NCBI GenBank assembly: GCA_041736175.1
Contig: JBGSUI010000240.1
Coordinates: 1 to 64,000, forward strand
Length of the DNA stretch: 64,000 nt
Direction: 5' to 3'
Source of the DNA: Oligoflexales bacterium
GTDB lineage: Bacteria; Bdellovibrionota_B; Oligoflexia; Oligoflexales; CAIYRB01
Below are positions 1 to 44,447 of the stretch, one piece after another. The notes under the pieces are model-generated. The model saw only the letters and a program-made list of their open reading frames with translations. It was not told the origin of the DNA and ran no database searches. A program made the translations under genes and the position numbers. The number at the start of each line of letters is the position of its first letter. The stretch's first letter is position 1.

Positions 1-38
1 ACCATTTATGTTGCTCAAAGAAACCACGGTCCGGGGGC

Positions 39-578
39 CTAGGCTGAGCATGTTACCTGCGTTGGTTTTTGAGAAGTTACAAAAAATGGGTGGGTCAATT
101 TACTTGAGCCTAGGTGGGTCAAATTAGTCAAGCGACGTAGCCGGTTTCCATCGGTAAAAGATTTTTGATAAATTTCATTTGTTGGTCTTGTCTTTTCTAT
201 CCATTCCGTCACAGATAGCTCTTGCCTTTGAAATGTAGGATCAAGGACCACTGGCTCGTCAGTCTCGCCTCTTATCACGGTTGCAACATGATACTGCCAT
301 CCAATGCTCGGAAATGGGGCAAAAGACCCAAAGATAAAAATTTGATTAGAGGGAATTTTCTCTAAAGCAAGCTCTATAGCGAGGTAAAACGCTCGTGTTT
401 CACATCCTGCCAACTTAAAATCGTAGGGAAGGTAGTCAATCTTACTCAAAACGGCGAGTGCTGTACCTAATTGGTTATCATTCCCCTGAATAGTCGAGCT
501 ACCGAGTGAATGATTACCCGAACCACAAGCGCAGAGCATCCCGTAATAAATTAGTAAATAAACACTAAGACGTTTCAT
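39..578 (-). CDS. Protein-glutamine glutaminase (deamidase)-like lipoprotein
   Basis: Lipobox-like LCAC. The motifs GCETRA, WQYHVA and VLDP give the Cys-His-Asp triad in the order of the protein-glutaminase family. Confidence 0.7.
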   Translation of the reverse strand: MKRLSVYLLIYYGMLCACGSGNHSLGSSTIQGNDNQLGTALAVLSKIDYLPYDFKLAGCETRAFYLAIELALEKIPSNQIFIFGSFAPFPSIGWQYHVATVIRGETDEPVVLDPTFQRQELSVTEWIEKTRPTNEIYQKSFTDGNRLRRLTNLTHLGSSKLTHPFFVTSQKPTQVTCSA

Positions 579-603
579 ACTCGTTTTCCCTTGCTAGGGT
601 TGA

Positions 604-623
604 GTCATGGTAACGACCATGAC
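604..623. promoter_or_regulatory. Perfect 8-4-8 inverted repeat GTCATGGT-aacg-ACCATGAC, candidate operator
   Basis: Seen directly, about 25 bp upstream of the 578 start codon. Confidence 0.4.
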
Positions 624-926
624 AAAATCTCTTTGAATGAACATAATATCCTCAACTGTTTAGACTCTTTGCATCGGGAAAAATCGAAAGAGATCTGCTC
701 CAAGCTGTATGTCTAAGCAACGATTTACCAATCTTGATGAAGATTGGATTGGCATAAACGACTTATCAAAACCTGTGCCGTAAAGCAGTATCCTACAAAA
801 GGCTTTAGTTTTTGCCAGATCAAAATGACCAGGTCTATCTGTAAACAATGAACTTAAGGAACTTCACTCCACGATACTGCAAACCAAAGCAGCATGGCTA
901 TCCGTTGATCGAGACCTTTAGACAAC

Positions 927-2783
927 CTACCTGTACACGATCTCCACCCTAAAATCCACTGCCCTTGCCTTGGCCCTCATCCCGAATTTGCCAGGCCACC
1001 GCCGCTTGGCCGTAGTCAGGCTGATGCCCAGAGCCTCCGCTACGCCCCTTCGGGTAAGGCGGCCGTCAGCGAGCCTTTCTCTGATCTCGATGTCAGAGAG
1101 CTTGATTAGATCCTGACCGGATGCACCTTCCTTGCCAGAACCATCCGGCACGATCACCGCGTGGGTTGCCACCAGTTGCAGGGCTTCCCGGAGGCTCCTA
1201 TGGCGTTCTCCACGGTCACCGCTATCGCCCTCGTCACCAAGAGCAGCGGTTAGAGCCGCCCGTATCATAGCAATCGTGAGGTGAGAGGCGTCCGCGGGTT
1301 TTGACCTGAGCCTGGCCCCTGTGGCCACAGCGTCGGCTTTTGCCAGCTGCTCCTCCAAATCTGAGATGACACTTAGGTTTTTGTCTCGCACCCGCAGGTA
1401 GGTGTCATCGGCGAGGAGACCCGCGGCCCATTTTTCAGTTACCTTAGTTAAGAGATCGCGTTTTTTTTCCAAGGAGTCTCGAGCTGCCTCTGCCGCTAGT
1501 GAGGCCTGCTGGGCTTCGGCTTCGGCCGCATCGCCATTTTTAAGCCTTGCGATCACCGCATCTATTAAGGAATCGTTGGCTGAAAGGGTTGAAATTTCCC
1601 GAGCTGCAAGCCTCTCTACATCCTCCACACGAAAAGTCCGGTGACTCGGCTGCTCGGAGCAAACGTAAACGGGATGAGTCCGTCCGTGCCCCCTCGTCAC
1701 CATGCGGCCTTTACATTCTGAACACTGTAGAAGCCCGTGAAGCCACCTTTTGTGATCCCGAGGTCTTCGTTTAGAGGTGATGCGGTCGTGGTAGTCTTGG
1801 TACCTAACGCGGGCCTTTTCAAAAAGCTCCTCGTCAACGATTCGCGGCACCTCGATCACTTTAGTCGTAAGCGAGATATTGTACCTGGCCTGGGGCTTGA
1901 AGCTCACGATAAGCCGCCCTGCGTAGATCTCGTTTCGGAGGATCGCCAAGACATGGTAGCGATTCCACGGACCGGGTTTTGCCGACGGGGTCACCGCTAC
2001 CCACGGCGAGCGGTCCACTCCAGCGGAGTTTAGTTGGTCAGCGATGTCGTAAACAGAAAGGGGTCTATTGCCATAGACATTGGAGAGAGTTTGGGCACCC
2101 GCGCCGCAGTAAAGCCTGAAAATGTCACTCACGACTTGGGCCTCTTTTTCGACCACGAAATAGCGCCAAGGGTTTTCTTTTTTGCCGGTCTTCTCGAACC
2201 GATATCCAAAGGGCACGTTGGTGAGCCGCCACTGGTCTTGGTTGACAAGTTTTTGAATCCGACCCGACTGGAGCATCCTCGAGTTTTCAAGTTTAGCGAT
2301 GGCCCCTAGTTCTTGGATGACTGCGGAGGCGATCCGGCCTGACGTGTCTGTGACACGGTAGACCACATCTTCGCTTTGGCTGATAAGGCGGACACTGAGG
2401 TGACGGAAAACGTCGGTGATTTCTCCGCGAAGTTCGGCACTCTCGCCCCGAAAAATCCGGTCGCTTGCGGCGACGATGATGGTATTGACCTGCTTGGCCT
2501 TGACCAGTTCGATCAGTTTCCAGAATTCTCGGTCCGAGTCTTTGGCCTCGAGGTTATAGCCCTCGTCTTTAAACACGTCCACGAGGCGCGCGGATTCATG
2601 AGTCCCGAACAGTCGTTCGTAACGTTCCTTAGTGACCGCAAGCTGGCGTTCGATCGTATCCTCTTTTGCTTGTTTATTCGTCGAGACCCGGGCGTAAATG
2701 GCAACCAGAGGGGTTTTGCCAGCTCCACCTTCGTAGACTGGTTCCTTAAGTTCCTTGAGTCGACTTTTTTTAAGGTTGGCCAT
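927..2783 (-). CDS. Large serine recombinase B, with an extra C-terminal HTH
   Basis: Catalytic YARVST, SDRIFR, recombinase-domain PFGY and ILRNEIYAG, Zn-ribbon CSEC, coiled coil, and HTH-like RRGVAEALGISLTTAKRRW. Confidence 0.95.
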   Translation of the reverse strand: MANLKKSRLKELKEPVYEGGAGKTPLVAIYARVSTNKQAKEDTIERQLAVTKERYERLFGTHESARLVDVFKDEGYNLEAKDSDREFWKLIELVKAKQVNTIIVAASDRIFRGESAELRGEITDVFRHLSVRLISQSEDVVYRVTDTSGRIASAVIQELGAIAKLENSRMLQSGRIQKLVNQDQWRLTNVPFGYRFEKTGKKENPWRYFVVEKEAQVVSDIFRLYCGAGAQTLSNVYGNRPLSVYDIADQLNSAGVDRSPWVAVTPSAKPGPWNRYHVLAILRNEIYAGRLIVSFKPQARYNISLTTKVIEVPRIVDEELFEKARVRYQDYHDRITSKRRPRDHKRWLHGLLQCSECKGRMVTRGHGRTHPVYVCSEQPSHRTFRVEDVERLAAREISTLSANDSLIDAVIARLKNGDAAEAEAQQASLAAEAARDSLEKKRDLLTKVTEKWAAGLLADDTYLRVRDKNLSVISDLEEQLAKADAVATGARLRSKPADASHLTIAMIRAALTAALGDEGDSGDRGERHRSLREALQLVATHAVIVPDGSGKEGASGQDLIKLSDIEIRERLADGRLTRRGVAEALGISLTTAKRRWPGKFGMRAKARAVDFRVEIVYR

Positions 2784-4527
2784 GGTAGGCCTCCCCTAAC
2801 ACGGCCAACGGTTCGGATTTGGTCAAATGCACCCTGTAAACCGGCTTTTTATTGGTCCCGTTGGTCTCCTTGAAATCCTTGGACTCGTTGCCCTGTTGCT
2901 TGTTGACGATGACCAGGAGTTTGGCTGCAGCAAAAACCACCCTTATGGATCTCCCCCCCCGTTCCATATCTTCGGTCAACTCTATGATGGCTTTTTCGAT
3001 AGCCTCCTTTGGCCTTAAGATCTCCAGTGCGGAGTTTGCGAGTCCTCTTTTGGAATGGAGCTTTGCATCTCGTTCCGCTAATGCGACTTCAACTTTTAAG
3101 GACTCCATCGACCTTTCGTATTCCTCCTGACTCACTTCATCCAGCGCGTATCTTTCGGTGAGTCGGTCGATGAGGGTGTGAAGCTCCGCAAGTTTGGTCT
3201 TGCCCGATTGTTTGGGGGTCTTTTTAAAATCAGCATTGATCTTGTCCAACGCTCGATCTTTGAGAGCCCCTTTGAATGCGTCGTTAAAGGTGAGCGATTT
3301 GACCAGATCGCCCACGGCTGTCTTAAGAAAGTCGAGCCGCGGCATCACATGGTGCTTTCTGCATCCATAATAAGAAGAACCGCGTTTATAATGATTGATC
3401 AACGACAAATGCATACCGCAGTGCCCACAGTGGAGAAAATCGTGAAACCAAACGTCTGCCGGCGTGACCATTGGCGCATCGGAATGATCGGATGCTTCGC
3501 CACGCTCTTTTCTTATTTTTTGCGCGGTCTCGAAGGTCTCCCGATCGATGATCGGAGTCTCGAGACAGACTTGCCGGACCTCTTTGTCTGGAAGTAGATT
3601 GGTGCGACGAAATCTAATGGTCCTGACCCCGGTGTAAAGTTCGCAGCTTAAAATCTTGACCACCGCCTCAGGGGTCCACAGCGGACTGGAATTATGAGCG
3701 GCCTCAGAAATCCATGCCTCTCGACTCACTCCCGCGTCGCGCAGGATGCGGGCGATACGGATATAGCCGATCGGCGTGCCGCCCCCTGGTGGCAAAATTT
3801 TCGGCTTTTTGCCTAAGTAAAGGGCGAACACGTCGCGGATGATGGCGGCTTCCGAGGCCACAACACGGTAAGAAAAATGCTTTTTACTTTTGATCAGGGT
3901 GCGATCCACCCTGATGCCATAAGGGGCGATGGGCTGGTGATACTTTCTGTTTTCCACTTGCAGACGAAACCCCGTCTGCAGAGATTTCACCAACTCGATT
4001 TTGTTGGCGCTGCCGATCTCCTGGGACAGAGAACTCACCAATCTTGATTGGGAATCCGCAAGACTATAGACGACGTCGGACACCGGGGTGACGACCCGCA
4101 CCCCACCTCTGCGCAAAGTATCCAAGATTTTGCCTCGTATCGAAGCTTTTTCTCCCCGAAAAATCCGGTCGTCCGCAGCGATGACGATGGTCGATATCAT
4201 GGATTTTTCCACAAGGCTGAGGATTTTCCAGAAAGCTCTCGTGGCTTCGAAGGTTTCAAGGTTATAGCCCTCGTCCGCGAAAGTGCCGACAACCGTCGCT
4301 CCCTCGGCTACAAGCTTATTCACGATTTTGTCGCAGAGAAACCGCTGCCGGTCGATGTTGTCGTGCTTTGCCTGCTCCTCGGTCGAGACCCTGAGGTAAA
4401 CGGCCACGAGTTCGCGCCTCTTAGGCGGCTCCCTCGTCGCTTCCCGGGATCCATTTTGACTTGGACTTGTCCGAGTTGGCTTTTTTCGATTTTGATTTTT
4501 CGGCTTCACCGGGTCCAACTTCTTCAT
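2770..4527 (-). CDS. Large serine recombinase A
   Basis: YLRVST, DDRIFR, APYG, ILSCELYTG, CGHC and a coiled coil. Overlaps recombinase B by 14 bp. An alternative GTG start at 4407 has a GAGG SD and follows the small ORF's stop. Confidence 0.95.
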   Translation of the reverse strand: MKKLDPVKPKNQNRKKPTRTSPSQNGSREATREPPKRRELVAVYLRVSTEEQAKHDNIDRQRFLCDKIVNKLVAEGATVVGTFADEGYNLETFEATRAFWKILSLVEKSMISTIVIAADDRIFRGEKASIRGKILDTLRRGGVRVVTPVSDVVYSLADSQSRLVSSLSQEIGSANKIELVKSLQTGFRLQVENRKYHQPIAPYGIRVDRTLIKSKKHFSYRVVASEAAIIRDVFALYLGKKPKILPPGGGTPIGYIRIARILRDAGVSREAWISEAAHNSSPLWTPEAVVKILSCELYTGVRTIRFRRTNLLPDKEVRQVCLETPIIDRETFETAQKIRKERGEASDHSDAPMVTPADVWFHDFLHCGHCGMHLSLINHYKRGSSYYGCRKHHVMPRLDFLKTAVGDLVKSLTFNDAFKGALKDRALDKINADFKKTPKQSGKTKLAELHTLIDRLTERYALDEVSQEEYERSMESLKVEVALAERDAKLHSKRGLANSALEILRPKEAIEKAIIELTEDMERGGRSIRVVFAAAKLLVIVNKQQGNESKDFKETNGTNKKPVYRVHLTKSEPLAVLGEAYHGQP

Positions 4528-4729
4528 TGAGGTGCTTCACTAAACTTGATTTCATGAGTTCTGCCGCTACCAGTTCGGCCAAAGCGTCGATCAGTTCGCC
4601 ACTTGCGGCATAATCGCGCCCACCAACGGAAAAGGCCGGCGTCTCGGATCCAGAAAGCTTGAGATGGCGACCCGGGACCTTTTTGGCTGCTTTTTTGGCT
4701 GACTTTTTTGGTGACTGTGAGACTTTCAA
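4421..4729 (-). CDS. Small Lys-rich protein upstream of the recombinases, possible accessory or directionality factor
   Basis: TTG start with GGGGGA SD, first ORF after the sigma-28-type promoter, with an amphipathic helix LIDALAELVAAELMK. Function is inferred from position only. Confidence 0.55.
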   Translation of the reverse strand: MKVSQSPKKSAKKAAKKVPGRHLKLSGSETPAFSVGGRDYAASGELIDALAELVAAELMKSSLVKHLNEEVGPGEAEKSKSKKANSDKSKSKWIPGSDEGAA

Positions 4730-4782
4730 GGTTCCCCCGAAGTGGACCTGACCTAAACATTGCCATGAAGGCTTCAGGGGTT

Positions 4783-4809
4783 TTATCGGCGGGATAGGGG
4801 CTGACTTGA
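4783..4809 (-). promoter_or_regulatory. Sigma-28 (FliA)-type promoter of the small ORF/recombinase operon
   Basis: Minus strand reads TCAAG-N14-GCCGATAA, a perfect FliA -10, 54 bp upstream of the 4729 start. Confidence 0.7.
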
Positions 4810-4903
4810 CTCCTTGGGGGAGAAATTTTCAAATTTTCTTGAAGATACTTTTTTATCACTTTTAAATCCTTTAATTTCAGTCTGTTACAGCGTGTGGACC
4901 AGT

Positions 4904-4930
4904 TTGCCTAACCTGTACGGCGTTAGGCAA
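4904..4930. repeat. Perfect 9-9-9 inverted repeat TTGCCTAAC-ctgtacggc-GTTAGGCAA, candidate att site
   Basis: Seen directly, at the junction between the AT-rich arm and the gene remnant. Confidence 0.65.
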
Positions 4931-5021
4931 CATGCCCCCTGGGCAAGCAGGTCCACCCTTTGCTGGCGCGGTCTTCGATCTTAAAGAATCGGTCCGCTGC
5001 TGGTTGGAGCAAAACCCATGA
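4911..5021 (+). pseudogene. Orphan 3' end of an interrupted gene with a cytochrome c-like MPP...W C-terminus
   Basis: Frame reads TCTALGNMPPGQAGPPFAGAVFDLKESVRCWLEQNP*. Its TGA overlaps the DUF1501 ATG (ATGA). An in-frame TAA at 4872 means the 5' part is missing here. Confidence 0.6.
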
Positions 5022-6385
5022 AGAAACCTCCTAAAAACAATGCAGAAACCAGCTGGCGTATCAGCACACCAAAGCTTGTGGAAGAATGCTCAAGGCGCCA
5101 ACTCATCGAGACAGGGTTTAGCCTTACGGCCTGGACCACCGCAGCCACCCTGTTCGGGTCACAGGCCGTCCGTGGACAAACAGCCTACACACCAAAACGC
5201 AACCTTATTTGGATCAATATGGGTGGGGGATGGGATATCCTCGAAGTCACGGATCCCAAGCCAGCCTCGACCGCCGGGATTGACCTCCTCTATGGCTTCA
5301 ACGAAGCTCGCGACGTGGCCCAATCCACCGACGGGGTCAAAGTCGGTCGGTGGCTCTCCGGCATCGCCGGCCTAGGCCAAGACCTGCTTGTGGTGCGAGG
5401 GCTCGCCATGGGAACCACCTCCCACAATGCTGGGATGGTTTATATGGATACGGGAATCCTAAGCAACGCCGGTCGCGTCAATGCCGCTTCGATTCCTGCG
5501 ATTGTTGCATCAGAGAGCCAAGCCACAATCCCCATCATTCAACTCTCCGGGGGCACCGACCCCCAAATCGACCGTGGTCTCCTGAATCCCGTTTCCGTTG
5601 TGCGGGCGGGCAACCTGGATCTTTACCGCTCGATGTATCCTGCAGAAGCTGACATCACTCGCAAACTCGCGGTCCTCGATTACCTGAAAAATTCGGTGAC
5701 CGATCTTGAAACCAAAGTGGGTAAAAACGACCGTCTCTCCAATCTAGCCGCTGCTGAATCGAAAGTCCGTGGCCAATTCACCACCAATGTTGGGGCTAAA
5801 TTAGCGCTCACCGACGCCGACCGGGCTCTCTTTAGGAACGGAGCCCCGACGGGGATGAACACTGGCTTTCAAGATGCTGTAGCACTTGCCTTAAAATTGA
5901 TTAATAATGACATATGTACCACGATAAACCTAGGCATTGGAGGATTTGACACACACCAAAACCAATCCACACGGCTTCAGCCGATTTTGCAGTCTGTTGA
6001 TTTCGCCATGGCAAGGTTAGTGGCTGGCCTCAAGGCTTCAGGAAAGTTAGATACGACGTTGATTGTGCTCTATTCAGACTTTGGACGGACCCCCCGGGTC
6101 AACGGCTCCAATGGGCGGGACCATTGGCCGACAGGAGGTGCATTGGTGATGGGTGGCAAGATCGATGGGGGACGTGCTGTCGGAGCATCCACAGATGACA
6201 CTTTAAGTGCCGTCAACCTCATCGACACCAACACCGGTGTTGTCACCAACGATCCCGCAACCGGCACCCAACTCAACCCAAGCCATCTTGGTGGCATGGT
6301 CCTGGCACTCACCCTAGGGGATGGCTACAGCCAGTTCCGGCCCTACTTGGCCGCGCTCCCCTGTATGACACGAACGAGGACCTAG
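5018..6385 (+). CDS. DUF1501 family protein, probably Tat-exported
   Basis: Twin-Arg SRRQL, then INMGGGWD, GGFDTH, SDFGRTP and GRDHW motifs. Confidence 0.9.
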   Translation: MKKPPKNNAETSWRISTPKLVEECSRRQLIETGFSLTAWTTAATLFGSQAVRGQTAYTPKRNLIWINMGGGWDILEVTDPKPASTAGIDLLYGFNEARDVAQSTDGVKVGRWLSGIAGLGQDLLVVRGLAMGTTSHNAGMVYMDTGILSNAGRVNAASIPAIVASESQATIPIIQLSGGTDPQIDRGLLNPVSVVRAGNLDLYRSMYPAEADITRKLAVLDYLKNSVTDLETKVGKNDRLSNLAAAESKVRGQFTTNVGAKLALTDADRALFRNGAPTGMNTGFQDAVALALKLINNDICTTINLGIGGFDTHQNQSTRLQPILQSVDFAMARLVAGLKASGKLDTTLIVLYSDFGRTPRVNGSNGRDHWPTGGALVMGGKIDGGRAVGASTDDTLSAVNLIDTNTGVVTNDPATGTQLNPSHLGGMVLALTLGDGYSQFRPYLAALPCMTRTRT

Positions 6386-7596
6386 TGAAGAGTACGCAAG
6401 AGGTTACGAACCTCCTCCATGCCACCCTGGTAGTTTTAAAAATATTATGTTTAGTGATCCTATGCAGCCTGTGGATTCTACCAGACGCGGCTTTAGCCCA
6501 GCTTGGAGAACACACGGCTTTGATGCCCACCGATACCATGGTGCCCCCTGTGGTCATGACCCATCCTGGGGTGATGCCTCCCAAAAGTCGCGCCAACGGT
6601 CACGAAGCCGGTCTGCTTATGACCCGCGACGAACGTACGTCAAAACTAGACCATACCACTGTGGGCGGCGATGATATTAAGTCGGTTGTTTCTGATGAAG
6701 CGGTTCTTGGGGCGGTTCATTTTGACTTAGGTGCAGGAGCCCGGGTCGCCTTGCTCCACGAGCTGGTTTTTCGCAAAACAAAGACCACTTCCAGCGCCAT
6801 CCGTCGAGGAGTCCCCCGTGAGGAGGTCGAGAGGATCCAGATGGACGCGCTTAAAATCACCATCGAGCTTACCGAAGGCCTGACCGCCGGCATGATCCTG
6901 CGCTATGTCTATAGAGACCGTCTCATCTATGGCGATCTTTCCGTTGCTCAGCAAAATCGATATAAAATTTCCATGATCGGCTACGGTGGGGGCGCTGCCT
7001 TAACCCTTAAAAATTTCGGTTTAGGATATGCTTACTATCCACAATTACGGGGGAAAACAGACGTTCTGGGCGAAGAAAAAATTGTGGTCGAACCTGGATT
7101 TCTCAACATCGATGTATCCTACAAACCAAGTGATTCCTTGGCTTTTTCGCTTCTCAACCGGCGCTTTTTGTGGGAACTAGACGATATCGGTCGAGGCACG
7201 ACCAATACCGATACCAACCAGACCCGTATTTCTCTTTACGGACTCGATCCCGACCAATACCTTTTGACCGACACTTTGACGATGCTCGGTGTTTCCTATG
7301 AACTCGGGAAAATAGCAACTCTAAAAGTTGCTTTAGGCCAAGAAAAAGCCCATTTTAATTTTCAAGATTTGTTGGTCTATAATCGCGTCGACGTGCGACA
7401 AAGGACGGGTGACCCGAGAGATCTCACTTACAATCGCGCGAGAGCCCAAATCAGTTGGCTACTTAACAAAGGTCTCGACATATCTTTAGGCATGGGTCTT
7501 TATGAGCGTAAATTTGAATTTCCAACCGCTATGAATGGAGGCACCTACGAGGCCTCAGGTAGAGAACTCATAGCGGCAGCAGGCATCAGTTTTTGA
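6385..7596 (+). CDS. Putative outer-membrane beta-barrel protein
   Basis: Signal peptide, amphipathic beta-strands and terminal Phe (AGISF). Confidence 0.65.
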   Translation: MKSTQEVTNLLHATLVVLKILCLVILCSLWILPDAALAQLGEHTALMPTDTMVPPVVMTHPGVMPPKSRANGHEAGLLMTRDERTSKLDHTTVGGDDIKSVVSDEAVLGAVHFDLGAGARVALLHELVFRKTKTTSSAIRRGVPREEVERIQMDALKITIELTEGLTAGMILRYVYRDRLIYGDLSVAQQNRYKISMIGYGGGAALTLKNFGLGYAYYPQLRGKTDVLGEEKIVVEPGFLNIDVSYKPSDSLAFSLLNRRFLWELDDIGRGTTNTDTNQTRISLYGLDPDQYLLTDTLTMLGVSYELGKIATLKVALGQEKAHFNFQDLLVYNRVDVRQRTGDPRDLTYNRARAQISWLLNKGLDISLGMGLYERKFEFPTAMNGGTYEASGRELIAAAGISF

Positions 7597-7636
7597 TGAG
7601 AAGGAGTCAACACTTTACATTTCCGGGAGCAAATGT

Positions 7637-8242
7637 ATGACACGAATTCTTGTTTTGAACGCGGGGTATGAGCCTCTACAGCTCGTGAGTTGGCAGAGGG
7701 GACTCTGCTTGGTTTTATCCAACAAGGCTGAGGTAGTCGAGCGCTCCCGGGCTGTGGCTCGCTCGGTAAGCTGCACGATAGAACTCCCCTGTGTGGTGCG
7801 GTTAGTTCGCTATGTTCACAATGTCAGCAAGATGGGTATGGTGCGTTGTTCCCGACGAAATATCCTGCTCCGAGATAGGTTCCAGTGCCAATACTGTGGC
7901 ATCAGGTGCAAACCCGCCCATGCGACCGTGGACCATATTGTACCTCGCGTCATGGGGGGAAAAACCACCTGGACGAACGCCGTGGCCGCATGCAATAACT
8001 GCAATCGGAAGAAAGGGTCTCGCAGCCTTGATTCTTCGGGCCTTAAGCTCATGAGAGCACCCAGGCGCCCCACGTGGAACGATCTGTTTGTGGTCCCCAA
8101 GGAAACCCACGGCGAGCTTTTGGCGGGTCCTGGTCTAGGAGTCGACCTGCAACCAGGTACTGTCGATACAAACCACGAGGCACGGGTCCAAAGCGTTCAG
8201 GAGATAGGCTTTAGAGAAGTTTGGCTTAAATATTTGAGTTAG
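7637..8242 (+). CDS. HNH endonuclease
   Basis: LVLNAGYEPL N-terminus, RDRFQCQYCG, TVDHIVP and ACNNCNRKK. Confidence 0.9.
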   Translation: MTRILVLNAGYEPLQLVSWQRGLCLVLSNKAEVVERSRAVARSVSCTIELPCVVRLVRYVHNVSKMGMVRCSRRNILLRDRFQCQYCGIRCKPAHATVDHIVPRVMGGKTTWTNAVAACNNCNRKKGSRSLDSSGLKLMRAPRRPTWNDLFVVPKETHGELLAGPGLGVDLQPGTVDTNHEARVQSVQEIGFREVWLKYLS

Positions 8243-39457: not shown

Positions 39458-41254
39458 ATGAAATTAAGAACCACACAGTTTCTTTCCACAAACGGGAAAA
39501 TGATCCTTTCATGGGTGATCGCTGTGAGCGGGGCGCTGCCTGAAAAGCTGTCCGCGGCAAGCCCTGTCTATTCCATATCAAAACTGGGGATTAAAAAGCT
39601 AGAAAGTCCCACAGATGACCCGCGAGGCCCTATTAAATTAACTGTGGACACCTCCCATACCGGACAGATTTCACCCTATATCTACGGATTCGGTGCGGTT
39701 TCGGGCGCCTCTGAGCTTTGGAGCGCGGACAACCAATTCAGTCTGTTTAGACTCGGTGGCAATCGATTTACCGGCTACAATTGGGAAAATAATATGTCCC
39801 ATGCGGGCAGCGACTGGCGTTACCAAAACGACCTATACCTATGCTCTAATCTTAACCCCATCGTCACGATGAAAGATTGCTCTAACCCTGGTGGCGTCGT
39901 CAGCGGATTTGCTAAGCAGGTCTTTGGGGTCAACGGGAGTGGACCAACGGCAAGTATCTTGGTCACCATCCCCATCATCGGTTACGTCGCCTATAAAGCC
40001 ACAGATGGAGATGTTTGCGCACCAGCCAACCAGCTCAAAGACGGTAACTGTAAAAATCGCGATTATCTTAAGACTCATTTTAGAATATCCCGAACCAAAA
40101 CTGCTGAAAAACCGACAACTAATCCAAATTTATCAGACGAGTATGTTAATCAAAATGAGTTTATAAAGTGGATCTTTGAGAGCTTCCCCGATAAGAAGCG
40201 GGGAGACTCACAGATTTTCTTTTCGCTCGATAATGAAGTCGCCCTTTGGGGAACTACCCATAATCGAATCCGACCGGGGGGTGATTTTTGCCAACACAAC
40301 CCCTCTTACTCCGAAATCCTCAAGCGCAATATCGACTACGGGTCTATGGTCAAAGAAATCCGGCAAGATGCACTGGTTTTTGGGCCCGTGGATTACGGTT
40401 GGTACTCGATGACAAGTCTTCAGGGCTTTGGTCACTGTGACGGTAACGGGAACGTCAATTTTTACGAATTCTATCTCAAAGGCCTCAAAAAAGCCGAGGA
40501 CGAAGCTAAGACTAAAGGTCCCATTGTCGACATCCTAGATTTCCATTGGTACTCTGAAGTCGAACCCAAACAGGGTGTTCGGATCACCCATAAGGATGCC
40601 CCAGATAGTCTCGAATACCATCAGGCCCGCATCGATGCTACTCGGACTCTTTGGGACCCAACCTTTGTGGAAGACACTTGGATTGCAAAAAAAGACCTGG
40701 GTGGCAAGGCAATCCGTCTGATACCACGGATGCGGGAAACCATCGAAAAATGGAACCCTGGGATGGGCCTTGCTATCACCGAATACAACTATGGAGGTGA
40801 AAATCAAATCAGCGGAGCTATTGCCCAAGCAGATATTTTAGGGATTTTTGGGCGCGAAGGAGTCTTTGCGGCATCCTACTGGCCACTCTCATCTAATTCC
40901 TCTTATATTTATGGTGCATTTAGGATGTTTAGAAATTTTGATGGCAAACGCAGTCGCTTTGGCGATACTGGATTAGCTTCTGCGACTTCAAGCCCAACCC
41001 GTACTTCCATCTACGCCAGTATCGATCCTATAAATCCTAAAAATCTGGTCTTAGTGGTCCTTAATAAGACAAAAGACCCCTTAACTGTTGACCTCAGTAT
41101 GAAAGGAACGACCCAAACGTTTAAATCAGCAGAAATCTACAAATTAGATAAAAGCTCCCCGCTACCAGGACTTCTCAAAAAGACGCCCTTTTCAGACCTC
41201 AAAAATCTCTCTATTCCAGGATTCACCATCTACACAATCAGAATAACACCTTAG
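39458..41254 (+). CDS. GH44 endoglucanase
   Basis: ISPYIYG, RLGGNR.TGYNWEN, LDNE, ITEYNYG and ADILGIFG. Confidence 0.9.
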   Translation: MKLRTTQFLSTNGKMILSWVIAVSGALPEKLSAASPVYSISKLGIKKLESPTDDPRGPIKLTVDTSHTGQISPYIYGFGAVSGASELWSADNQFSLFRLGGNRFTGYNWENNMSHAGSDWRYQNDLYLCSNLNPIVTMKDCSNPGGVVSGFAKQVFGVNGSGPTASILVTIPIIGYVAYKATDGDVCAPANQLKDGNCKNRDYLKTHFRISRTKTAEKPTTNPNLSDEYVNQNEFIKWIFESFPDKKRGDSQIFFSLDNEVALWGTTHNRIRPGGDFCQHNPSYSEILKRNIDYGSMVKEIRQDALVFGPVDYGWYSMTSLQGFGHCDGNGNVNFYEFYLKGLKKAEDEAKTKGPIVDILDFHWYSEVEPKQGVRITHKDAPDSLEYHQARIDATRTLWDPTFVEDTWIAKKDLGGKAIRLIPRMRETIEKWNPGMGLAITEYNYGGENQISGAIAQADILGIFGREGVFAASYWPLSSNSSYIYGAFRMFRNFDGKRSRFGDTGLASATSSPTRTSIYASIDPINPKNLVLVVLNKTKDPLTVDLSMKGTTQTFKSAEIYKLDKSSPLPGLLKKTPFSDLKNLSIPGFTIYTIRITP

Positions 41255-42095
41255 GGTTTGTCAATGGATTTACTGCAGGCAAGATTACGACAAAACAAGT
41301 GCACTCCGAAGCGTGGTCTAAGCAGAGTTGGCCATGGAAATTTTCTACGATGCCCTTTGCTATCGATAAGCCAAGACCATACCCGTTGTGTTTTGTAGAT
41401 CTATAGGACCTTTTTCTGTCTGAGGCTTCCACCAAGGGCATACCAGGTCCATTGTCCATGACTTTGATCGTAACAACTTCGGTTTTCTGAACAGCGTGGA
41501 TCTTTATCCAAGGATTTTTCATACCGTGCACTGCGTCCAACGAGTTGTTCATTAGGTTTGTGACGACCTGTGACAGTTGCCCAACATCCCCCCATACTTT
41601 GGGGTTTTCCTTCAATTCGATTTCAAGCTCGACTCCTTGGCTTTTGACCCGCTCCTGCCAAAGGACCTTGGATTCTTCGATCACTGCGCACAGTGGCCCG
41701 ACGACGGCATTTTGTTCACCATGGGAAGAACGCACCAAGCCACCTAAAGTTCTTGTCAGGGTTTCAATACGCCGGGCCATGCGTATGATGGTATCTAAGT
41801 CCTGCCTGAGTTCTTGCTTACCATAGGTAGCCAGCCCCACCAACTCTAAGGCACAGGCCTGTTTATGGACCTGCTCACATTTTGTGAGAAGAACTGTCAA
41901 CGGCGACCTAATCTCGTGGGCCACCGAAGCGGTGATCTCTCCGAGCCAAATAGAGTCGGGAGAATGACGAGAATGAGGAGATTGACCGCCTTGGTTGGAG
42001 CGTGTGGAATTTCGTCTCCAGCGCCCTTTCAAGATTTTCCCTAAGGCCACCAAACCCTGCCACAATTTATCGATTCTATTTATTACGAAGGTCAC
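41238..42095 (-). CDS. Sensor-less histidine kinase
   Basis: AHEIRSPL, NLMNNS.DA, DNGPG and GYGLGL boxes after only about 50 N-terminal residues. Confidence 0.85.
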   Translation of the reverse strand: MTFVINRIDKLWQGLVALGKILKGRWRRNSTRSNQGGQSPHSRHSPDSIWLGEITASVAHEIRSPLTVLLTKCEQVHKQACALELVGLATYGKQELRQDLDTIIRMARRIETLTRTLGGLVRSSHGEQNAVVGPLCAVIEESKVLWQERVKSQGVELEIELKENPKVWGDVGQLSQVVTNLMNNSLDAVHGMKNPWIKIHAVQKTEVVTIKVMDNGPGMPLVEASDRKRSYRSTKHNGYGLGLSIAKGIVENFHGQLCLDHASECTCFVVILPAVNPLTNPKVLF

Positions 42096-42176
42096 CTACT
42101 GAATCTCCATCCACCGATCCCAGTCTAGCGGCCGAGCCACACCATAAATCAATCAGCAATCCCTGGCAATGCGCTA

Positions 42177-43559: not shown

Positions 43560-44447
43560 CTACATAAGTAGTTTAGTGATTTCATCATAAGTAGAGCCTT
43601 GACGAACGGCTATAAAGTCATGGGCCACCGTCGGTGTCGAAGGGAGAAATGGCTTAATTTTCATTTTTAATTTTGCCTTCGGAAGACTAAGAAAGTTGTA
43701 ACCATAGCTACCTAGAATAGCAAAGCTAGGATCATTCGATTTGTCAGGTAGGTTAGACTCGAACAATATTACATCAGGCTTGTTGAGTTCGAAGACCTCT
43801 TTGGCGCCTTTAAGCACTTCCGGTTCAAATCCTTCAACATCAATTTTAATTAAACGAATTTTCTGAATGAATTTTCCTCGCCGCATGATATCCGATAAAG
43901 TTTCTACCGGAACGGAGCATGATTCACAATTCTCACCCTGGTAATTCTGGACAAGGGAGGAACGCCCAAAGTGCCCTTGGGGAATATTTAATGTCAACAA
44001 CCCTGGAGATGCACCTAAAGCTATTGGAAACAGCTCGATGTTGTTTATTCCGTTTTTTTCAATCGCTTTTCGTATCAGTGTCTGCATGTACGGTATCGGC
44101 TCAAATGCCAAAACTTTACCCGAGGGTTGAACCAGCTTGGCTAAAATCATACTAATCAAACCAAGATTCGCCCCAATATCAAGGACAAGATCCCCAGGCC
44201 GAACGACTTTAGATATCACCCAAGTGATTTTTCGATCTAGCTCTCCAGAGTAATAAACCGCTCTACCAACATAATCATCCAGAGGTGCCGGGGCAAAATA
44301 ACCACCATGGACTTTGGCCCAAGCTAGCTCTTTACTCTCACCAGCCAACTTTAATACCAGAGCATGGTTAGCAAGGGAACCACTGCCACTGTACAAAGGA
44401 TAGAGTCTCAAAACCTTTGACATAACAATTTGTCTAAAAGTGGGCAT
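43560..44447 (-). CDS. FkbM family methyltransferase
   Basis: LDIGANLG, AFEP and KIDVEGFE. Confidence 0.92.
   Translation of the reverse strand: MPTFRQIVMSKVLRLYPLYSGSGSLANHALVLKLAGESKELAWAKVHGGYFAPAPLDDYVGRAVYYSGELDRKITWVISKVVRPGDLVLDIGANLGLISMILAKLVQPSGKVLAFEPIPYMQTLIRKAIEKNGINNIELFPIALGASPGLLTLNIPQGHFGRSSLVQNYQGENCESCSVPVETLSDIMRRGKFIQKIRLIKIDVEGFEPEVLKGAKEVFELNKPDVILFESNLPDKSNDPSFAILGSYGYNFLSLPKAKLKMKIKPFLPSTPTVAHDFIAVRQGSTYDEITKLLM

Follow-up and report, generated by a model that had tools for sequence, protein, structure and literature searches.

We analysed a stretch of 64,000 nt, called the window here, which is the first 64 kb of contig JBGSUI010000240.1 (C45) in the genome assembly GCA_041736175.1 of an Oligoflexales bacterium (G000; 6.08 Mb, 264 contigs, 91.6% complete). 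The left end of the window carries the right part of an element that splits a protein-coding gene, and, since window base 1 is also contig base 1, this element runs off the left edge; its left part lies on a second contig of the same genome, C259. It is very probably a gene-intervening mobile element, integrated by large serine recombinases (LSRs) in a gene for a cytochrome-c-domain protein and excising by recombination between its attachment (att) sites, attL and attR, at the core GGCAA to restore that gene. The excision and the exact reconstitution of the gene are real, as seen in assemblies of environmental sequencing runs. An earlier, sequence-only reading of this DNA had proposed such a gene reconstitution by tandem LSRs and had placed it under the control of sigma-28 (FliA) in the motile phase; the first proposal is borne out by the results below, and the second fares less well.

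The right-hand junction and the genes behind it are as follows.

4894..4956, no strand assigned: attR, with the element-side arm at 4894-4908, the core GGCAA at 4926-4930 and the host-side arm at 4942-4956
4926..5021, + strand: 3′ gene fragment, consisting of the core, the final 29 codons and the stop codon of a cytochrome-c-domain gene of about 555 aa
5018..6385, + strand: DUF1501 gene, 455 aa (PF07394, E = 8.4e-39), with the twin-arginine-type leader SRRQLIETG
6385..7596, + strand: gene for a 403-aa protein of no known family, also present behind DUF1501 in relatives

We first describe the gene fragment that directly follows the element. Within the stop-to-stop frame 4875..5021, the tail of the relatives' proteins was matched only from 'GN MPPGQAGPP...' (4926) onward, the 17 preceding residues being unrelated, and the TGA of the fragment (5019-5021) overlaps the DUF1501 ATG at 5018, just as expected of the headless fragment, translationally coupled to DUF1501, that the earlier reading had noticed. 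DUF1501 orthologs with 54-70% identity were present in 15 of the 40 other genomes searched. Eight of the ortholog loci were retrieved and seven were examined, the locus of G009 being left out because its 3.2-kb contig was too short. As a result, the upstream gene was found uninterrupted in all seven loci (417-812 aa from stop to stop, mostly about 560-580), and in each of them its product ends with '...MMASGNMPPGQAGPP..I..ELKEAVRCW.EQ..' immediately before DUF1501.

The missing 5′ half was located on C259. A tblastn search of the own genome with the fragment matched the fragment alone, and the 5′ half was reached only with the full-length proteins of the relatives, which matched C259 at 40553-42148 with 61-69% identity. 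Including the core, the 5′ half spans 40571-42147 of C259; its reading frame runs '...CTNCHKPGTSRQDLSTEAQWKQWGRQGVSMMASGN', with the homology ending at '...MMASGN', and then continues for 19 unrelated residues to a stop, showing that the element supplies no replacement 3′ end. The core GGCAA is common to both junctions (C259:42143-42147 and window 4926-4930), and joining the two halves in silico at this core afforded an open reading frame (ORF) of 555 aa with a single terminal stop. Residues 10-555 of the joined product align to residues 24-570 of the G003 ortholog with 69.5% identity, and similarly to four others, so that the in-frame 5′ half anticipated by the earlier reading does exist and yields a product colinear with the orthologs. 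The insertion point lies 29 codons before the stop, between a CXXCH motif and the conserved 'MPPG...CW' tail, whose methionine would be a haem ligand by analogy with class I cytochromes c. Matches of the interrupted protein to PSD2/PSCyt3 were weak and below the Pfam cut-offs. DUF1800 was also considered as the missing partner and rejected, as PF08811 found no match in the genome.

The att sites themselves were then inspected. The inverted repeat at 4904-4930, which the earlier reading had called att-like, is real: its 9-nt arms (4904-4912 and 4922-4930) are 100% complementary, the repeat lies inside attR, and its right arm holds the crossover core GGCAA. The outer arms of attR are 15 nt long, 87% complementary and 33 nt apart, and their centre falls beside the core. 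The element-side half of attL contains GCAAACTGG at a distance of some 16 nt from the core, and this sequence is complementary to CCAGTTTGC in the element-side half of attR. Since the two element-side arms are complementary, a rebuilt attP would have the symmetric outer arms CCAGTTTGC and GCAAACTGG, as LSR attP sites do. One motif is common to three of the four half-sites, the host-side left arm being without it. In relatives, conservation of the attB region extends to the protein sequence and in part to the DNA; nine of 13 loci were matched by a strict attB DNA pattern, four of the 13 being the same contigs under other identifiers.

To follow the excision products, window 1-8000 was compared with Logan contigs of four public runs (X1-X4), all generated by a single metagenome study of hot springs and biofilms. 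X1 and X2 each gave one contig across 112..8000, while the unitigs of X3 and X4 branch exactly at 4926 and 4930. In both X3 and X4, the loose end at 4926 reads 25 letters unique to C259:42118-42142, directly before the core, and therefore represents the attB junction of the restored gene. Furthermore, the loose end at 4930 in X4 reads 25 letters unique to C259:42148-42172, directly after the core, which is the attP junction of the circle. The attB junction was thus present in two of the four runs and the attP junction in one, so that the excision proposed by the earlier reading does occur. In X4, the attR unitig (4901-4955) had a contig-mean depth of 26.8, whereas the element unitig reached 69.3 and the flank 67.6; given a bin depth of 78.6, the two remaining junction unitigs would together account for about 30.5, a calculation that also yields the X3 bin exactly. 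The attB unitig of X3 had a depth of 4.5, compared with 15.2-18.5. Roughly, the excised form makes up a sizeable minority of the copies, about a fifth to a third, in two samples and is below detection in the other two.

Such junctions could also record infection in place of ongoing excision, if one strain consisted of subpopulations with and without the element and if plasmid-like or phage-like circles spread by integration. The attB junction without attP in X3 would agree with this, as would the ParB-like, partition-type gene and the repeat array of the element (described below), which resemble those of plasmids and plasmid-prophages, and the relatives of its small ORF and of one recombinase, 89-91% identical, in other metagenomes, which indicate that the element family circulates. 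However, there were zero base differences over 8 kb between the forms in X2, X3 and X4, the element depth in X4 equals the chromosomal depth with no excess of free copies, and the 6.8 kb of element sequence available contain no replication gene. We thus consider this account highly unlikely. The recombination reaction and the split gene would be the same either way, so that it differs from excision of a gene-intervening element only in direction and timing.

Several observations nevertheless weigh against our interpretation. No branch at the att site was detected in X1 or X2, and the attB junction without attP in X3 could equally reflect loss of the element, a subpopulation free of it, or excision. 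The four runs are not independent, since they come from a single study, which is possibly also the source of genome G000. The excised share in X4 is only rough, because attR (26.8) together with attB and attP (about 30.5) falls short of the flank (67.6). Finally, since each contig breaks in a repeat, the two parts of the element are not joined up, and the gap between them could harbour phage or transfer genes.

We then investigated the genes that may carry out the recombination. The coding potential of each frame was scored as codon-usage log-odds, trained on 456 long ORFs of G000, in which real genes score +0.27 to +0.30 per codon.

4421..4729, - strand: small ORF of 102 aa, lysine-rich, with SPKK-like ends and a helical centre, scoring +0.30 per codon
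2770..4407, - strand: LSR2, a large serine recombinase of 545 aa, its start re-set to GTG 4407
927..2783, - strand: LSR1, a large serine recombinase of 618 aa, with an extra C-terminal helix-turn-helix-like stretch

These genes form an operon on the - strand in the order small ORF, LSR2, LSR1, which spans 927-4729 and starts about 200 nt from the att core, and the stop of LSR2 overlaps the start of LSR1 by 14 nt. The two recombinases and the small ORF named in the earlier reading are hence present, with refined starts (a 102-aa ORF, and LSR2 from GTG 4407). A longer LSR2 frame extends over 2770..4527. Since its first 40 codons (4408-4527) score -0.10 per codon, the true start of LSR2 is probably the GTG at 4407, as judged from codon usage; this GTG is preceded by GAGG and lies 13 nt after the stop of the small ORF, and the protein collection includes a gene call of 545 aa (P0007) that is identical. 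The operon opens with the small ORF, whose start codon is the TTG at 4729 and whose product gave no match in Pfam, PHROG or NCBIfam; this 102-aa protein could act as an accessory or directionality factor. An overlapping ORF of 111 aa (4524..4859) was rejected as non-coding at +0.03 per codon.

Both recombinases scored above the cut-offs for the Resolvase domain (PF00239; 41.2 bits with E = 2.2e-10 for LSR1 and 33.0 bits for LSR2, cut-off 23.3) and for the Recombinase domain (PF07508; 41.6 bits with E = 1.6e-10 and 38.0 bits, cut-off 21.1), and both stayed below that of Zn_ribbon_recom (PF13408; 23.7 and 19.5 bits, cut-off 25.3). The motifs VAIYARVST and SDRIFRG in LSR1, and VAVYLRVST and DDRIFRG in LSR2, retain the catalytic serine and the D-R-x-x-R signature. 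The two proteins are 34% identical over 398 aa and are the sole such genes in G000. Both match the PHROG integrase family phrog_95 (E = 1.8e-50 for LSR1, E = 5.6e-43 for LSR2), and among solved structures LSR1 is matched best, though weakly, by SprA of prophage SPbeta (E = 6e-6). A weak HTH_24 match was also seen at residues 572-595 of LSR1, in a stretch of about residues 560-600 (window 1000-1110) that LSR2 does not have. For the NCBIfam equivalog of XisF, from the fdxN element, the cut-off is 375 bits, and the two recombinases reached 59.5 and 36.9.

SCCmec, with CcrA/CcrB, likewise combines an operon of two LSR genes with an adjacent att site. CcrA/CcrB is described as always a two-gene operon that integrates and excises with no separate directionality factor (PMC5595907). 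By analogy with the bidirectional action described there, a CcrA/CcrB-like pair would explain why attR, attB and attP coexist here. The sequences are, however, far apart, and neither recombinase belongs to these families, with 36.4 bits for the NCBIfam CcrB model and 33.6 and 18.9 bits for CcrC, against cut-offs of 900. SCC integrates at the very 3′ end of rlmH, which stays functional, whereas here the conserved 29-residue tail is removed from the protein.

We propose that LSR-mediated site-specific recombination would integrate the element into the gene of about 555 aa, the conserved upstream partner to which DUF1501 is translationally coupled. The integration would truncate the cytochrome-domain protein and cut DUF1501 and the following genes, such as the 403-aa gene, off from the upstream gene and its promoter. 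LSR1 and LSR2 would act as a pair, in the manner of CcrA/CcrB, and recombination of attL with attR within the 5-nt GGCAA would yield attB, with the restored gene, and a circle with attP. As for the identity of the acting recombinase, the setting of direction by the small protein, the keeping and re-integration of the circle, and control by sigma-28, these steps we infer.

The remainder of the element was assembled in two parts, namely C259 from 42148 to the contig end on the left and window 1-4930 on the right, 6.8 kb in total. The element measures at least about 7 kb and probably about 10 kb or more. The following further features lie in the window part.

1..140, no strand assigned: repeat end, an insertion sequence (IS)-like multi-copy repeat at the contig break, still in the interior of the element
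39..578, - strand: cargo gene for a lipoprotein-like protein of 179 aa (Gln_deamidase_2, PF18626, E = 2.8e-11)

Window 1-140 lies on a 2,959-nt unitig, which has a depth of 330 in X1 versus 37 for its neighbour (about nine-fold), and three other branches leave it at 140-142. The same sequence recurs at or near the ends of C111, C110, C116 and C24, and the repeat has at least four different right-hand flanks. Residues 155-179 of the cargo protein recur on four other contigs, inside the repeat; as the last 34 or so codons of the ORF 39..578 are supplied by the repeat, the cargo gene may itself be interrupted. While C45 ends in this 2,959-nt repeat, C259 ends in the 3′ end of a TnpB-type (IS200/IS605-family) IS at 44166-44305, an end that is shared with at least 15 other contig ends, and the gap between the two contigs holds at least one IS-type repeat. 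The end of the TnpB-type IS has a sharp boundary at GTGAACTACC and is hairpin-rich, and diverged copies on C5 encode the zinc-finger/RuvC C-terminus of TnpB.

On the C259 side, the element encodes a ParB-like protein of 377 aa, which matches phrog_1033 (E = 1e-19) and TIGR00180 below its cut-off. An 11-nt unit, CCCAGAGCATC, is repeated 5.1 times at G000:C259:42485-42540, about 90 nt upstream of this gene, and the array could be ParB-binding or iteron-like. A second ParB-like gene, 64% identical, was found at C185:3977-5206 beside a 304-aa gene, with no recombinase nearby. The guanine-plus-cytosine content is 0.555 in the ParB part, 0.54 in the LSR part and 0.41 around the cargo gene (141-926), versus 0.50 in the flanks. 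No RNA gene was detected in the element parts by Rfam and tRNA scans.

Could the element instead be the integration module of a temperate phage, with attB and attP arising from ordinary spontaneous induction? The match of both LSRs to phrog_95, that of the ParB-like protein to phage ParB-like PHROGs and the SprA structure as the top, if weak, hit of LSR1 (E = 6e-6) would suit such a phage, and the middle of the element is unassembled. However, the 6.8 kb assembled contain no virion gene (capsid, tail or terminase) and no lysis, repressor, replication or transfer gene, no relative of LSR1 was found in 2.9 million viral contigs, and the depth of the element was not above that of the host in any of the four runs. 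The excised share is also far above the level of spontaneous induction. A temperate phage is thus distinctly improbable, and we retain the reading of a gene-intervening mobile element.

Its distribution was surveyed in related genomes and in large sequence collections. Including G000 itself, LSR1 had matches (E <= 1e-30) in three of 95 genomes of the order, and LSR2 in three of 131 genomes of the phylum sample, and LSR1 was absent from all 11 genomes of the own family. The two foreign matches among the 130 other phylum genomes (G068 and G064) are single genes with 30-37% identity in unrelated contexts, and the two-recombinase element itself occurred in none of these 130. Since the LSRs are found in none of the 11 family genomes and only as distant single genes in two of 130, it looks like a recently acquired mobile element and unlike a conserved developmental device. 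In a collection of 5.8 billion proteins, the top foreign relatives of LSR1 were 40-41% identical, and no relative of LSR1 was found in the genome contig collection. A relative of LSR2 with 91% identity lies on a 2.5-kb contig, and a relative of the small ORF (P0006; 98 aa, 89% identical) comes from another metagenome; from these two relatives it follows that a sister element exists. The small ORF and P0006 found nothing in the metagenome contig collection.

Turning to the operon that is disrupted, a gene for a 279-aa lipoprotein with a GTG start heads it on C259, and the 403-aa gene (6385..7596) would belong to it, as inferred from synteny with the relatives. No sigma-70-type site was found in 4730-5017 on either strand, so that in the integrated state DUF1501 lacks an obvious promoter of its own. 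An HNH endonuclease gene (window 7637-8242; PF01844, E = 4e-15) follows, and it occupies the same position in the G003, G001, G024 and G028 loci. Three paralogous DUF1501 sets were also noticed in G000 (C157:26883-30764, C188:19168-22998 and C259:5555-9283). Their layout differs, with a protein of about 275 aa before DUF1501 and one of about 560-580 aa after it, and the latter proteins end in a similar 'MPP...L' tail.

We then turned to the proposed control of the recombinase operon by sigma-28, for which one feature is relevant.

4783..4809, - strand: sigma-28-type motif, with the -35 element TCAAGTCA at 4809..4802, a spacer of 11 nt and the -10 element GCCGATAA at 4790..4783

The TTG at 4729 follows 54 nt downstream of the motif, which reads TCAAG-N15-CCGATA, compared with TTAAG-N16-CCGATA as the attack-phase consensus of B. 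bacteriovorus (PMC3627812). A FliA gene, scoring above the family cut-off, is present in G000 together with nine flagellin-type genes. The string GCCGATA[AT] occurs 619 times in G000 versus 369 times expected from base composition. A weight matrix was built from 26 distinct other sites (GCCGATA[AT] plus T[ACT]AAG), 18 with N16-equivalent and eight with N15-equivalent spacing; at the score of the element site or above, it found 188 genomic sites versus 28 in the shuffled genome. The motif TAAAGTTT-N11/12-GCCGATAA is enriched across G000.

Of the 26 ORFs downstream of the seed sites, 20 were scanned for domains, four short ORFs and two duplicates being left out. As a result, none of the 20 carried a flagellar or chemotaxis domain: two encode trypsin-like proteases, four are of toxin-antitoxin type (RelE-like, Gp49-like, ParE, and an Xre/MbcA/ParS antitoxin), one is a PEBP, one a DUF4160 protein and one has a sub-threshold lipoyl match, and 11 belong to no family. 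The strict -10 element was present in none of the nine flagellin upstream regions, in one of which TTAAGTTT-N11-GCCGAATT was seen by eye. Hence the FliA-type promoter of the earlier reading holds as a motif at 4783..4809, but is not tied to motility. From its sequence distribution, the motif could mark a broad regulon like that of Bdellovibrio, or be no more than a promoter type common in G000. The attack-phase analogy with Bdellovibrio was borrowed, because the relatives of this host are named as Oligoflexales, Oligoflexus or Silvanigrellaceae metagenome-assembled genomes and not as Bdellovibrio. A weak sigma-28-like site in front of the target operon (CTAAAGTA, 12 nt, GCCGAATG; C259:39741-39768), which was seen by eye and shortly precedes the GTG start of the gene for the 279-aa lipoprotein, was not used, as sites at its score number 960 in the genome and 409 in the shuffled one.

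A host-timed programme would demand that sigma-28 (FliA) triggers excision in the motile phase, that the operon is rebuilt and expressed, and that the ParB-bearing circle is kept and later re-integrates. The motif TCAAGTCA-N11-GCCGATAA in front of the recombinase operon, at a place with no sigma-70-type site, the excess of 188 over 28 sites, and the presence of FliA and nine flagellin-type genes all speak for it. The excised share also varies by sample, from none seen in X1 and X2 to substantial in X4, where the element (69.3) is as deep as the flank (67.6) with attR at only 26.8, which fits circles that are kept and not lost. The ParB-like gene with its upstream 11-nt repeat of five units would serve such a circle, and CcrAB-type LSR pairs are described as bidirectional without a directionality factor (PMC5595907). 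However, the motif is not associated with motility in the 20 downstream ORFs or the nine flagellin regions, and its spacer falls one base short of that in most copies, a spacing shared by eight of the 26 seed sites. Moreover, the motif upstream of the target operon is weak (960 versus 409 shuffled), none of the 11 family genomes has the element, and the target gene is intact in the seven relatives examined. We also know of no terminally differentiated cell type in this group. A host-timed programme is therefore unlikely, and on balance control by sigma-28 in the motile phase is less likely than plain mobile-element behaviour, possibly as a switch resembling active lysogeny.

The element can be compared with known systems that rebuild genes. 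The gin element of Bacillus cereus ATCC 10987 is a non-phage element that intervenes in gerE and carries girA/girB/girC and GirX (PMC5595907). Like gin, the present element does not look like a phage, splits a coding region and rebuilds the gene by precise excision; both have at least two serine recombinases, with two encoded in a single operon, a short core at both junctions (9 bp in gin, 5 bp here) and an attP-type site with an inverted repeat around the core. In gin, however, the girAB operon pair is reported there as dispensable and the separate GirC with the small GirX does the work, whereas here the operon pair provides the only recombinases; gin is also under sporulation control in a terminal mother cell, unlike the present element in its Gram-negative, Oligoflexia-type host. 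In Bacillus subtilis, SPbeta with SprA-SprB (spsM) and skin with SpoIVCA (sigK) likewise integrate by an LSR inside an ORF, which is reconstituted upon excision (PMC4191935, PMC5499854). Those systems differ in using a single LSR with a sigma-controlled directionality factor and in being a prophage or prophage remnant, and the similarity of LSR1 to SprA is at the family level only (E = 6e-6). The element also resembles active lysogeny, in which the Listeria comK prophage and the Sa3int phages in hlb act as on/off switches of the gene in which they reside, by reversible excision without lysis (PMC7397523, PMC6597384, PMC12607152). Unlike the present element, those are complete prophages, with condition-dependence established by experiment. 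The comK and Sa3int prophages use tyrosine or single serine integrases.

Much is known about gene-rebuilding intervening elements from work on Bacillus, Clostridioides and heterocystous cyanobacteria, and our literature search retrieved no gene-reconstituting intervening element in the present phylum. Here, both gene halves, both att sites and the excision products have all been captured in environmental data. The short, defined att sites, together with an LSR1 that has no relative above 41% identity, could interest collectors of orthogonal LSR tools for genome engineering. For the organism, the element constitutes a natural on/off allele for its DUF1501 operon. There is only a small chance that, in this member of Bdellovibrionota, which has flagella and forms no spores, sigma-28 times the two-LSR operon so as to flip the ParB-bearing element out of the cytochrome-c/DUF1501 operon when the cell enters its motile phase and to return it afterwards, with a CcrAB-like LSR pair at work in place of one LSR and a directionality factor. 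If true, such a phase-specific, reversible reconstitution of a gene would be without precedent beyond endospore formers and heterocystous cyanobacteria, and, if the sigma-28 link holds, programmed DNA rearrangement would extend to a new lineage and to a new kind of life-cycle phase.

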